The translations under genes and the position numbers were made by a program. DNA of 64,000 nt from an uncultured Bacillota bacterium (lineage in GTDB: Bacteria; Sysuimicrobiota; Sysuimicrobiia; Sysuimicrobiales; Segetimicrobiaceae), in NCBI GenBank assembly GCA_963804645.1, contig CAWDRG010000009.1, forward strand, positions 1,024,001-1,088,000, read 5' to 3'. The notes beneath the pieces were generated by a model. That model searched no databases. It saw nothing but the letters and a program-made list of their open reading frames with translations, and was not told the origin of the DNA. Below are positions 1 through 3,384 of the stretch, piece after piece. Every line of letters starts with the position of its first letter. Position 1 is the first letter of the stretch.

Positions 1-1346
1 GTACCGGCAGCGAGACCGCTACTCGTCGTTTGGCAAAAGCGTTCGTCGGCGGCGACCGGAAAATTCATATATGTTGCGAGCGCGGGGACCTGCACCAGTT
101 CGTTCGTGTCGAGCCAATGCCCGGGGGCCCACAGCATGCGCCGGTCGGGGTCGAAGCGCGAATACGGAAACCCGGGTCGTGCATACACCGCATCGTCGTA
201 CAAAACCAGCCAGCGCGGATCGAACGCCCGGTCCGCCAGCGTGCTGAATGGCGCGTACGTGAGTGTAGATACGTCCCAGAGCGACGCGGCGTACCGCTCG
301 AGACCTTCTCCCAACGCACTGCGAATCGCATCCTCGCGGGTGGCACCCTTGCCCTCGCCATTGAAACTCGGACGCAGACCGTGTCCGTCGCGGTACGGAG
401 CCATGACGACGCTGCTGCAGGACGGCACGACCGCTGTGTCGGTCCCGTCGCCGTCGTAGAGCAGCACTCGCCGCACGAGCCCGGCCCGAGGATCGGCGAG
501 CAGCCGCAGCTCTTCCGGGACGTGCAGCGAGTGCGTCAATGACGCGAGTTTTGACGGACCCACTATTGCTGCGGCCCCGCCGCACGTCTCGCACCAGGGC
601 ATCGGCAGCACCGAGTGCAGCGTAGAGATTTCGTCGCCTTGGATGACGACGCATCCGTAGGCCGCGACATCGGGATAGCGAAGCGCAAGGAGCACGTTCT
701 CGGCGGCGACGCGAGCTGCAACGGGCTCCTCCAGGGCTCGCGGGTGGCTTGCGCCAGAGATTGAGTCGAACAGGCGCAGTCTGCAGCAGTTCCAGCAGGC
801 CGTGTGCATCGGGATAGCCAAAGGCCCGTAGAAGACTTCCGAGCCGTGCCTCCAGATTGGCATCGATCGAAGGCGGGCTTGGTGGATGTGTCGCACCAGC
901 CGCAGCGCATCATGAACATCCAGACCGGAAAGGTCGATGATTGCGAACGCGCTGTCCGCCGCCGTTTCGCGCGCGCGGATCCCGAACCCAACCAGGTGAT
1001 CCATCACGCGGGTCGTCAACGCGGTCTGCCGGGGCGCCCACACAGAGGCTTCGTCATCGGACGACGCGGTATGCGCGGTCTGAGCCGAGGATATCCGGAC
1101 GATATCGGCGTCCTCGAGTTGACGACCAAGAACGTCAACCCAGTCACGTGAGTAAGGAAGATCCTCCCCGCGTATCTCGCCTGCGTTCCCGAGCGCGGGG
1201 AGGACCTCGAACATAAGACCATGCGCTGAATCCTTGTTTAGGCGAAAACACCCCTTCGACGACGAAACAATCGCACCGTCGCGCGTCGCCGCTATCCGGA
1301 CGTTGGGCGCGAGGCGAATGCGATTGCTATCCGCCTCTGGCGCCAC
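1..1346 (-). CDS. Fused RRE-like + E1/ocin-ThiF-like + YcaO cyclodehydratase (TOMM/LAP C-D fusion); 3' end runs off the window
   Basis: Hand-translated minus frame, stop-free from 1394 to 1 and not in the ORF track. Motifs: FYGPLAIPMHTACWNCCRLR, HSVLPMPWCETCGG, DPRAGLVRRV, GEGKGATREDAIRSALGEGLERYAAS, FDPDRRMLW, VPALATY, QTTSSGLAAG. The start is uncertain; the first in-frame GTG is at 1346. Confidence 0.9.
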   Translation of the reverse strand, partial: MAPEADSNRIRLAPNVRIAATRDGAIVSSSKGCFRLNKDSAHGLMFEVLPALGNAGEIRGEDLPYSRDWVDVLGRQLEDADIVRISSAQTAHTASSDDEASVWAPRQTALTTRVMDHLVGFGIRARETAADSAFAIIDLSGLDVHDALRLVRHIHQARLRSMPIWRHGSEVFYGPLAIPMHTACWNCCRLRLFDSISGASHPRALEEPVAARVAAENVLLALRYPDVAAYGCVVIQGDEISTLHSVLPMPWCETCGGAAAIVGPSKLASLTHSLHVPEELRLLADPRAGLVRRVLLYDGDGTDTAVVPSCSSVVMAPYRDGHGLRPSFNGEGKGATREDAIRSALGEGLERYAASLWDVSTLTYAPFSTLADRAFDPRWLVLYDDAVYARPGFPYSRFDPDRRMLWAPGHWLDTNELVQVPALATYMNFPVAADERFCQTTSSGLAAG

Positions 1347-1530
1347 CGGCAGCGGGACCGGTTGCTCCGGCGCTTCCTGCCTCGCTGAGCACTTTCAGGG
1401 CTTTCATGAAGGTCTCGCCACACGGCTCGCATTGATTGCATTCCATGCACTGGAAGCGCCTTGCGATGATCGAACTGATGGTCGCCAGGGAGTCGACGAT
1501 CTTTTCCATATCGTACTGCTTTCCCGGCAT
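1327..1530 (-). CDS. 67-aa Cys-repeat peptide, candidate RiPP precursor
   Basis: GGAGG RBS 6 nt before ATG; CMECNQCEPC tract; Gly/Ala/Ser/Thr-rich tail; co-oriented with and directly upstream of the YcaO gene. Confidence 0.7.
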   Translation of the reverse strand: MPGKQYDMEKIVDSLATISSIIARRFQCMECNQCEPCGETFMKALKVLSEAGSAGATGPAAGGARGG

Positions 1531-1633
1531 AGGTCGCCTCCATTGGGCATGATAGTCGTCCTCGAGCGCGAAACGCTAGCTGAGCCTTTGGGACACCGAG
1601 AGGAGCACTACGAGACAAGATCGTTACACAGCC

Positions 1634-1664
1634 ATTGTGGGGATAGCGGTTGAAGGGGTCAACC
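1634..1664 (-). promoter_or_regulatory. Candidate sigma70-type promoter for the peptide/YcaO operon with an overlapping inverted repeat
   Basis: Minus strand TTGACC (1662-1657), 17 nt, CACAAT (1639-1634). Palindrome GGTTGA-N5-TCAACC at 1648-1664 overlaps the -35. Confidence 0.4.
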
Positions 1665-1992
1665 CTCAAAAGGTCAATTACGCGGTCGCGAACGATAGCA
1701 GGAACCTGCCTGATAACTATCCCGTCGCGGCGACGAAGATATCTCGCCCCTGTTCGAACCGCCGATCGGGCCCGGATAGGTGATCTTAGCGACCGTGTTT
1801 CGGCCCCGTTCGGCGGTCGGCGTCGTCGTCATCGGATTGATCCGCGAGCGGCGCGAGGCCGGTATCTCGCCGTCGGCACTCAGGCAGGAATCGTGATCGG
1901 CGCGGCCCAAGGGGATGCGCGCGGCGGTCGACCGGGTGCGGATGGGCGCCGGTCGCGCGTCGATGCGAATGATCCCTACGCGGGGTGTGCGT

Positions 1993-3384
1993 GTGGCCGA
2001 GGTCGACAGATACGATGCGATCGTAATCGGATCCGGGCAGGGCGGAAACCCGCTCGCGGAAGCGTTGGCCGGAGCCGGCCGCCGGGTCGCCATGATTGAA
2101 CGGAAGCACGTCGGTGGCACCTGCGTCAACGAGGGCTGCACCCCGACGAAGACGATGGTGGCGAGCGCCCGGATCGCGTATCTCGCCCGCCGCGCGTCGG
2201 ACTACGGGGTGCGCGCCGGCACCGTGACGGTGGACATGACGGCGGTGCGGCGCCGCAAGCGCAGGATCGTCAACCTCTGGCGGAGCGGGAGCGAGCGCGG
2301 CCTGAAGAAGGCGGCGGGCCTGGACCTGATCCGGGGGGAGGCGCGGTTTGAGGGGCCGCGGCGCGTCGCGGTGGCCCTCTCGCGCGGCGGCACGCGCGAG
2401 CTGGTCGCGGACCAGATCTTCATCAACGCCGGCGCGCGGCCGGCGCGGCCCGCGGTCCCGGGGCTCGAGACCGTCCCGGTGCTCGATTCGACGTCGATCA
2501 TGGAGCTCGGGGTCCTTCCGCGGCACCTGCTGGTGCTCGGCGGCGGCTACATCGGCTTGGAGTTCGGGCAGATGTTCCGGCGATTCGGCAGTGCGGTGAC
2601 GATCGTCCACCGCCACGGGCGCCTGCTCGATCGGGAAGACCCGGACATCGCCGACGCGATCGAGGGCGTGCTGCGCCAGGACAAGGTGAAGCTCGTGCTG
2701 GACGCCCAGACGCTGCGGGCGGCGCCGGGGCCGGGGCGGACGATCCGCCTGACCGTGCGCGCGTCAGGGGCCCGGTCGCCGCGCACGCTCACCGGCTCCC
2801 ACCTCCTCGCGGCCACCGGGCGCGTGCCCAACACCGATCGTCTCAACGCGGCGGCCGCCGGCGTCGAGCTCGATGCCCGCGGCTTCGTTCGCGTCAACGA
2901 GCGTCTCGAAACGACCGCGCCCAGCGTGTACGCGCTCGGCGACATCAAAGGCGGGCCGGCGTTCACCCACATCTCGTACGACGACTTCCGCATTCTCGAG
3001 ACCAATCTGCTGCGGGGCGGGCAGGCGACGACCCGCGACCGATTCGTGCCGTATACCGTGTTCACGGACCCCGAACTGGGCCGGGTCGGTCTCGGCGAGA
3101 CCGAGGCGCGCGCGCAGGGGCGCGCGATCCGGGTGTTTTCGATGCCGATGCGGCGGGTCGCGCGCGCGGTGGAGATGGACGAACCGCGGGGGACCATGAA
3201 GGTGGTCGTGGACGCGCGGTCCGGGCAGATTCTGGGGTGCGCGGTCCTCGGGATCTTCGGCGGCGAGCTGATGTCCCTGATCGAGGTCGCGATGATGGGC
3301 GGCCTGCCGTATACGGCGCTGCGGGATGCGACGCTCGCCCATCCGACGCTCTCGGAGGCCTTCAACAACCTGTTCGACCGCTAG
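1993..3384 (+). CDS. Class I pyridine nucleotide-disulfide oxidoreductase (RclA/MerA-like, no C-terminal Cys-Cys)
   Basis: GSGQGG FAD motif, [13 protein letters not shown] redox disulfide, GGGYIGLE, C-terminal [15 protein letters not shown] start at 1993. Confidence 0.9.

Follow-up and report, generated by a model that had tools for sequence, protein, structure and literature searches.

What is the role of a small open reading frame (ORF) that precedes, and slightly overlaps, the gene for a YcaO-type enzyme in an uncultured Bacillota bacterium? The ORF occupies the minus strand of a 64,000-nucleotide stretch of DNA (assembly GCA_963804645.1, contig CAWDRG010000009.1, positions 1,024,001 to 1,088,000), which at its full length is called the window here. 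The original prediction took its product for a candidate precursor of a peptide made by ribosomes and then modified post-translationally (RiPP), in which four Cys-x-x triplets lie between a leader and a follower. Our findings indicate that peptide and enzyme are best explained as a self-contained, mobile two-gene module of the azoline-forming RiPP type, similar to the thiazole/oxazole-modified microcins (TOMMs) and linear azol(in)e-containing peptides (LAPs). On the more specific proposal, that the peptide is the substrate of the enzyme and that its cysteines become thiazolines, the sequence evidence leaves us evenly divided between acceptance and doubt.

The small ORF is a genuine gene

The following elements define the peptide gene in the window.

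1327..1530, minus strand: gene of the 67-residue peptide (ORF list, homologues, third-codon-position excess of differences, indel-free reads)
1537..1541, minus strand: Shine-Dalgarno (SD) sequence GGAGG, CCTCC on the plus strand, 6 nt 5' of the peptide ATG
1634..1662, minus strand: sigma-70-like promoter match TTGACC-17-CACAAT, about 100 nt 5' of the peptide ATG

The 67-codon ORF starts with ATG and ends with TAG (1327-1329). Its position, its translation, the GGAGG ribosome-binding site and the 20-nt overlap with the enzyme start at GTG 1346 were all as originally described. A GGAG-type SD sequence followed by ATG precedes the peptide in 10/10 loci displayed, namely our own and nine genome loci (L012 not displayed). 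When 32 distinct homologous coding sequences were compared, codon positions 1, 2 and 3 accumulated 5849, 3130 and 11740 differences, respectively, and the differing codon pairs were synonymous in 7685 cases and non-synonymous in 6498. The idea of a chance ORF was rejected on this pattern of differences among codon positions: the small ORF is a genuine protein-coding gene.

A single 211-nt metatranscriptome contig (run X9) covers positions 1358-1568, that is, most of the peptide gene and 38 nt of leader RNA. This gives a weak hint that the gene is transcribed, with DNA carry-over as a possible source of the contig. This contig takes in the peptide gene with its 5' leader and leaves out the enzyme gene, which could mean that a short transcript is more abundant or more stable, or be due to chance or, again, DNA carry-over. 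The promoter at 1634..1662 is a consensus match only, with one such match found where 0.4 were expected, and an Rfam search of window positions 1-2500 returned nothing at E<=0.1.

The partner is a fused cyclodehydratase of the azoline-forming type

1..1346, minus strand: fused RRE/E1-like/YcaO cyclodehydratase, N-terminal 448 codons (Pfam, TIGR03604, fold match)

The full enzyme has 695 aa (L002 17259-19346) and extends beyond the window to G000:C9:1023259. Pfam identifies YcaO in it at E=9e-62, and the model of the thiazole/oxazole-forming SagD type, TIGR03604, is passed with 222.6 bits (cut-off 219.25). The closest solved structures by sequence are TruD, LynD and MusD. The AlphaFold2 (AF2) model of the enzyme (pLDDT 82.4, pTM 0.84) aligns over its full length with the folds of LynD (TMq 0.66), MusD (TMq 0.63, TMt 0.67-0.69) and TruD. 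At the N-terminus of the model, four short strands (residues 9-36) are followed by helices, an arrangement like that of a RiPP recognition element (RRE).

The 16 full-length enzymes are 36-59% identical, and all keep GEGKG, ExxER, ERD, the pattern CWxC...CxxC and the C-terminal PHP[IL]A; a Pro-rich C-terminus is typical of azoline-forming YcaOs. In an SSGLAAG/SNGLA-type segment, S442, G444-L445-A446 and G448 are invariant. The GxGxxG nucleotide-binding motif was not seen by eye in the aligned E1-like region of these 16 sequences. Fold and motifs thus point to an E1-like/RRE leader-binding partner fused within the enzyme, and the SagD-type YcaO domain has an intact ATP/Mg site. Judged by its enzyme, the pair belongs with the fused cyclodehydratases of the azoline-forming type. 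No dehydrogenase accompanies it: the SagB-type FMN dehydrogenase of TOMM/LAP systems (TIGR03605) scored above cut-off in 0/6 host genomes, our own and five others. Such a dehydrogenase is needed for azoles only. The host genome of our locus, which is 96.8% complete, contains a single YcaO.

Peptide and enzyme travel together across three phyla

A word-indexed search gave nine peptide homologues of 60-75 aa, and a profile search of 1.84 billion protein representatives gave 20; the family is a rare one. A DNA scan gave 11 genome loci, among which L013 was dropped as spurious (a 14-residue match at E=6e-4, with no enzyme) and was removed before all counts. Our own locus, the genome-scan loci and 26 metagenome loci make up the 37 loci used here, with 32 distinct core sequences. 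By tblastn, the enzyme lies directly downstream of the peptide in 34/37 loci. In two more, L034 (41 nt remaining) and L038 (a divergent copy), the N-terminal motif of the enzyme was recognised by eye in the translation, and L039 ends at a contig edge, so that the enzyme comes next in 36/36 of the remaining loci. The view of the peptide as a genuine partner of the fused enzyme is thus borne out by co-occurrence in 36/37 loci, in each of which a peptide with candidate Cys/Ser/Thr residues stands directly 5' of the enzyme gene, as expected of a TOMM/LAP precursor.

The divergent enzyme that follows the peptide at L038:834-1278 was missed by tblastn at E<=1e-3, and its N-terminal strand pattern (VRFAASTRCMATAQGAWLTTARGNF) is recognisable. 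The peptide-enzyme family is therefore wider than identity searches show. When the N-terminal 330 residues of the enzyme served as query, only 14 proteins were found; the subfamily of the enzyme is thus of the same small size as the family of the peptide.

The loci span Pseudomonadota, Acidobacteriota and Actinomycetota, and the hosts are soil bacteria. Record titles of the genome loci name Paraburkholderia dipogonis, a Burkholderiales metagenome-assembled genome (MAG), an "uncultured proteobacterium", Terriglobales, Acidimicrobiaceae, Thermoleophilia, Solirubrobacterales and Jatrophihabitans. Two cultured strains, Paraburkholderia dipogonis and Paraburkholderia sp. BL6669N2, carry the pair, and NCBI annotates the peptide there as "hypothetical protein". 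In an all-versus-all comparison of 11 loci, the only ORFs common to them were the peptide and the enzyme, and Pfam assigned the 87 neighbouring ORFs of 15 loci to unrelated genes, among which neither a dehydrogenase nor a protease or transporter recurred (L019 and L022 were also chosen and had no ORF to scan).

The pair is mobile. Within its phylum the peptide occurs in 1/94 genomes, our own, with 0/6 among congeners and 0/22 in the family, and in Paraburkholderia it occurs in 1/201 sampled species. In the genome studied here, its boundaries can be drawn as follows.

1..1878, no strand: window part of an inserted segment of 2766 nt in all (window -887 to 1878 = G000:C9:1023113-1025878), which contains only the enzyme, the peptide and the upstream region

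The congener G070, with flanks 87-88% identical, has 73 nt where our genome has these 2766 nt, and the flanking genes are adjacent on one contig in G070 and in two further congeners (G067 and G069). The GC content is 63.3% in the inserted segment, 71.3-71.5% in the flanks and 68.6% in the genome. Since a segment of lower GC sits between genes that are adjacent in congeners, the pair is a horizontally acquired two-gene cassette in this genome. At the ends of the insert we found short, chance-level repeats only, and no integrase, transposase or other mobility gene was seen in the 20 kb annotated. Separately, L005 (a Burkholderiales MAG) and L006 (a Terriglobales MAG) have identical core-coding sequences and nearly identical junctions while belonging to bins of different phyla, which is either a very recent transfer or a binning error.

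The cysteine tract of the peptide is conserved, its tail is not

Which part of the peptide would the enzyme act upon? Alignments and the AF2 model divide it into four segments.

1450..1512, minus strand: conserved N-terminal amphipathic helix, residues about 7-27 (alignments, AF2)
1417..1449, minus strand: motif CMECNQCEPCG with C28, C31, C34 and C37, the most conserved part of the peptide (alignments)
1375..1416, minus strand: conserved follower helix, residues 39-52 (alignments; AF2 helix 39-51)
1330..1374, minus strand: variable Gly/Ala-rich tail, unconserved, whose DNA overlaps the enzyme start region (GTG 1346)

The N-terminal segment has the consensus MPxxFEIExxxDSLATISxIIFxRL, and its helix is presumed to be the leader or recognition segment. 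It is followed by the triplets C28-M-E, C31-N-Q, C34-E-P and C37-G-E. All four Cys are present in 32/32 distinct DNA-verified peptide sequences, and C31 is invariant across a 27-row peptide alignment. The follower has the consensus FMxALxVLREAG. In the AF2 model, a helix at residues 8-31 leads into a loop (32-38) and a second helix (39-51), after which the tail is disordered, with pLDDT below 50 at residues 57-67. Of the proposed layout of leader, (Cxx)4 core and follower, the N-terminal helix, the Cys tract and the C-terminal helix are thus conserved; the Gly/Ala part of the follower is not.

It had also been considered that this tail, rich in Ser, Thr, Gly and Ala, might be the real core. 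Across homologues it runs to 8-30 residues that show no conservation and in which Gly, Ala, Glu and Arg abound, and it is free of Cys, Ser and Thr in at least 4/27 aligned homologues, so it is not a general core. Moreover, its DNA is shared with the region in which translation of the enzyme starts, and the tail is rich in Gly, Glu and Arg because GGTGG and GGAGG strings there provide GTG codons and SD-like sites. The tail was rejected as the true core on these grounds. We also rejected a carrier with a C-terminal GG of the ThiS/MoaD kind, since the GG end is limited to this genome and its near relatives, the fold is helical, and a GxGxxG motif was not seen in the E1-like region of the enzyme.

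Searches with known models did not place the peptide in a described family. Our own peptide matched 0 Pfam families, and among 27 members there were only single-member hits at E>=0.007. NCBIfam yielded no more than chance matches (E 0.036 and 0.15), which score far under the cut-offs, PDB profiles gave hits at E>=0.57, with no solved structure above chance, and neither NCBIfam nor Pfam showed a match to the NHLP or Nif11 leader models. Look-alikes from the ESM Atlas were generic helical hairpins and uninformative. One protein of 252 aa, P0027, contains four tandem repeats resembling core plus follower (FCYCHDCGGAFWKSLSILRWA), with four matched stretches at a profile E of ~1e-9. The resemblance could be that of an unrelated protein, or the protein could be a relative in which the motif is repeated.

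Is the peptide the substrate of the enzyme?

The substrate reading is the most economical one, because a leader-binding-type domain and a competent YcaO domain are found beside a co-inherited peptide with four invariant Cys, and there is no other candidate substrate. The precursor would then have four parts: a helical leader, the invariant central core CMECNQCEPCG, a follower helix and a tail without meaning. The enzyme, of the LynD/TruD type, would combine three domains: a winged helix that serves as RRE, an E1-like domain that is inactive and holds a Cys4 zinc site, and a YcaO domain that depends on ATP. With the leader bound by the RRE, YcaO would phosphorylate the amide carbonyl preceding each cysteine, the thiol of which would close a thiazoline, giving up to four rings at -18 Da each. 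As no SagB-type dehydrogenase is found, the rings would be left unoxidised, as thiazolines. Given that the pair comes without protease or exporter, the product may be kept inside the cell as a modified mini-protein, and, to judge from the acidic and polar residues that separate the rings, it might bind metal. The chemistry is probably conventional; the peptide is probably a new kind of substrate for the YcaO enzyme family.

Several findings weigh against this reading. The RRE model TIGR03882 scores 27.2 on the enzyme, below its cut-off of 36.9. AF2 confidence for the free peptide is moderate (pLDDT 67). No recurrent protease, exporter or immunity gene was present among the 87 flanking ORFs of 15 loci, which speaks against a typical secreted product. 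Typical RiPP families have a conserved leader and a variable C-terminal core. Here the Cys tract is central and most conserved, the tail is the only variable part, and the combination of a conserved follower helix with a central invariant core is unlike a textbook RiPP. Over the whole 52-residue part, conservation resembles that of a folded domain and extends to those residues of the motif that are not Cys, and the invariance of all four Cys in the 32 DNA-verified sequences fits a metal site as well. Modelling of the complex of enzyme and peptide gave scores of 0.43, 0.00 and 0.21, where the mark is 0.32; these were counted on neither side.

The same observations raise, as the main rival, the alternative that the small protein is an unmodified helical-hairpin partner or regulatory subunit of YcaO that binds Zn or Fe-S, while the enzyme acts on some cellular protein or on the product of a gene elsewhere. 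We consider this rather unlikely. It would account for the CxxCxxCxxC pattern with invariant neighbouring residues in 32/32 DNA-verified sequences, for the domain-like conservation over 52 residues, for a model of helix-loop-helix form whose loop holds the last two Cys, and for the absence of protease and exporter from the neighbourhood. One source labels a homologue as an Fe-S-type aldo/keto-reductase-like oxidoreductase, and the NCBIfam match at E=0.036, although at chance level, can be counted on the same side. By contrast, neither Pfam nor PDB profiles gave a significant match of the peptide to Fer4, zinc-ribbon or other metal-binding families. The enzyme retains its leader-binding-type N-terminal domain and a complete YcaO site, no alternative substrate travels along, and a strong peptide start combined with a weak enzyme start suits a substrate more than a 1:1 subunit.

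Some homologues, moreover, lack one or two of the cysteines. The last Cys is replaced by Gly in P0003 and P0021 (C4->G), and the third in P0020 (C3->G). P0024 combines C1->G with C3->T, and P0026 is degenerate. The loss of a single Cys should be better tolerated in a substrate than in a structural metal site, which supports the substrate reading. However, these variants are database proteins that come without genomic context, and they may be errors or pseudogenes.

If the peptide is indeed a substrate, could the enzyme perform another reaction of the YcaO family on it? The possibilities include the formation of some of the rings only, ATP-dependent backbone cleavage of the MusD type, and amidine or thioamide formation. 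MusD is a close structural match (TMq 0.63, TMt 0.67-0.69), and it is reported to remove C-terminal residues by ATP-mediated hydrolysis (PMC10885120). The module has no protease, and its C-terminal tail is disposable. Nevertheless, we regard such chemistry as improbable: the enzyme passes the azoline-forming SagD-type model, no invariant nucleophile other than the cysteines lies near a conserved motif, a conserved cleavage motif is absent from the tail, and neither TfuA-like nor any other conserved partner was found among the compared loci.

The junction between the two genes

How is the enzyme translated, if its gene begins within that of the peptide? The only canonical start in the enzyme frame of our locus is the GTG at 1346, which gives the 20-nt overlap. 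In 21/33 loci analysed, the conserved N-terminal strand of the enzyme, [FIL]-x-[FL]-[AG]-x-x-[VL]-R, begins 1 nt past the peptide stop. The frame of the enzyme relative to the peptide is +1 in 25 of these 33 loci and -1 in five (L007, L008, L011, L012 and L037); in the other three (L003, L005 and L006) it is 0, so that the genes are in frame with only a stop between them. In 14/33 loci, representing 11 distinct lineages, there is no ATG, GTG or TTG between the upstream in-frame stop and the N-terminal strand, and L012, L016 and L037 remain without a start even if CTG, ATT, ATC and ATA are allowed. Because canonical starts are missing, public gene calls truncate the N-terminus of the enzyme, our own being shortened to 651 aa; yet the part omitted shows sequence conservation and makes up the first strands in the model.

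A stop codon separates peptide and enzyme in 36/36 loci that reach it. This stop is TAG in 29/36 loci, or in 24/31 distinct lineages (16 of them with TAG-C), whereas the enzyme genes end with TGA in 12 cases, TAG in three and TAA in two (n=17), and TAG ends 33% of long ORFs in our genome. The lineages in the TAG count are related, which means that a binomial significance of the bias is overstated. A conserved RNA hairpin at the stop was considered and rejected as a general feature: our own junction does fold well, with z = -2.07 and -2.40 in two runs, and the mean z was -0.07 over 32 distinct junctions. Stems of >=4 bp around the stop occur in 17/31 junctions, compared with 42.5% of 772 control TAG triplets. 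As folding over all junctions is unexceptional, a hairpin does not explain the TAG bias.

Our preferred guess for the junction is termination-reinitiation with a relaxed choice of start codon. The strong start of the peptide (ATG with GGAGG), set against a weak or missing one for the enzyme, points to translational coupling by which the peptide is made in large and the enzyme in small amounts, and an excess of substrate over enzyme fits this combination of starts.

Alternatively, recoding at the stop, by readthrough or by a +1 or -1 shift, could produce one fused polypeptide in which the Cys tract is an N-terminal domain of the enzyme. Such a mechanism would explain why 14/33 loci lack ATG, GTG and TTG before an enzyme N-terminus that is conserved and clearly translated, three of them lacking near-cognates as well, and it would give a reason for the preference for TAG, mostly TAG-C, in 24/31 lineages as opposed to TGA in 12/17 enzyme genes. 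Three loci are in frame with only a stop between the genes, and P0030, a fragment from the database, can be read as a fusion in frame. When longer forms were sought, however, only P0030 turned up, a piece of 168 aa that is cut short at either end and probably stems from a locus that is error-prone or decayed. The stop is retained in every one of the 36 loci, the frame relation varies among relatives (0, +1, -1), there is no shared slippery sequence, the codon before the stop varies widely, and a canonical or CTG start is present in most loci. We therefore hold recoding to be very improbable. A related proposal, that an indel at 1346-1394 fuses the ORF to the enzyme, did not survive inspection of the reads: contigs from three peat-metagenome DNA runs bridge the junction (1272-1403) with substitutions and no inserted or missing letters. 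As the reads show substitutions only, such an indel is excluded for this genome, and the stop present in 36/36 loci likewise refutes the fusion.

It is tempting to speculate further that the pair makes no secreted antibiotic at all. The product would be an intracellular mini-protein that retains its leader and in which the four cysteines form a fixed thiazoline/carboxylate loop, for example for metal binding or redox, and the enzyme, whose gene often has no start codon, would be translated only by ribosomes that finish the peptide at the conserved TAG, by termination-reinitiation or recoding. This combination is unlikely to hold in full. If true, it would mean that a high substrate-to-enzyme ratio is hard-wired into a unit of 2.7 kb able to function in whatever host it enters.

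Comparison with known systems

The cyanobactin heterocyclases LynD, TruD and PatD form thiazolines from Cys without a dehydrogenase. Like the enzyme described here, they combine an RRE-containing part, an E1-like domain and YcaO in a single polypeptide, and they are its best matches in sequence and fold (PDB 4v1t, 4bs9), with ~17-19% identity over the fold alignment. Cyanobactin clusters, however, include PatA/PatG proteases and a PatE-like precursor with recognition sequences. No such protease is found near our pair: among the 87 flanking ORFs no subtilase recurs, and the one S8 hit (L004) has no counterpart in 10 other loci compared. Neither Pfam nor NCBIfam has a precursor model that fits the peptide, and the pair does not fit the cyanobactin class. 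Its core is single, central and invariant, while the cores of PatE-type precursors are hypervariable cassettes, and its hosts are soil Pseudomonadota, Acidobacteriota and Actinomycetota rather than cyanobacteria. The muscoride enzyme MusD (PDB 7u58) shares the three-domain fold, and its pathway likewise lacks a dedicated C-terminal protease. We saw no sign here of the ATP-dependent removal of C-terminal residues that PMC10885120 describes for MusD.

The TOMMs of the heterocycloanthracin/sonorensin type share with our peptide the repeated Cys-x-x triplets in the presumed core, and in this respect the likeness first noted for the peptide holds. The heterocycloanthracin family is characterised by C-terminal Gly-rich repeats and a free-standing F protein, along with a fused cyclodehydratase truncated at its N-terminus and a dehydrogenase of the SagB type. 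Our system has four acidic/polar triplets in the middle of the peptide and a full-length enzyme that includes an RRE, and it has neither a dehydrogenase nor a match to an NCBIfam precursor model, so that the likeness does not extend to membership.

Other small precursors resemble the peptide in a different way. PqqA, MftA and the bufferins also have cores that are invariant across phyla and follow no obvious antibiotic logic; those systems rely on radical-SAM or MNIO enzymes and several further genes, in contrast to a two-gene YcaO system. By precursor and gene content, none of the heterocycloanthracin, cyanobactin, NHLP/Nif11 and LAP-with-dehydrogenase classes fits. The suggestion that the layout is unlike any described RiPP class agrees with this, since neither the models searched nor the literature covered contained one like it. 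In that literature, which included parts of PMC4603692 (Cox et al. 2015) and PMC10885120 and had subscription-only papers outside its scope, we found no description of the peptide family or of a YcaO enzyme with a CxxCxxCxxC peptide.

Significance of a minimal pair

Three features of the pair are out of the ordinary: the invariant central core, the minimal and mobile two-gene format, and the odd translational junction. YcaO cyclodehydratases are familiar from the pathways of antibiotics and toxins, in which cores vary and several helper genes take part. The minimal unit here is one peptide and one enzyme. A core that is near letter-for-letter the same across three phyla, in a mobile cassette of 2.7 kb, points to a product of fixed structure and to a function that is independent of the host. 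If the cysteines are indeed converted, the uses of azoline chemistry would be widened towards modified mini-proteins or metal ligands. The pair would offer a very small system for studies of leader and follower recognition, and its junction, poor in start codons and biased towards TAG, a compact natural case of translational coupling between substrate and enzyme. The cultured Paraburkholderia carriers make these questions directly testable.

Surroundings of the pair

At one locus, L030:15-3241, two radical-SAM genes lie directly 5' of the peptide on the same strand, an arrangement seen in no other locus. At our own locus, the pair is flanked by genes for an FAD oxidoreductase and an amidase on one side and by a gene for a pyridine-nucleotide disulphide oxidoreductase on the other.

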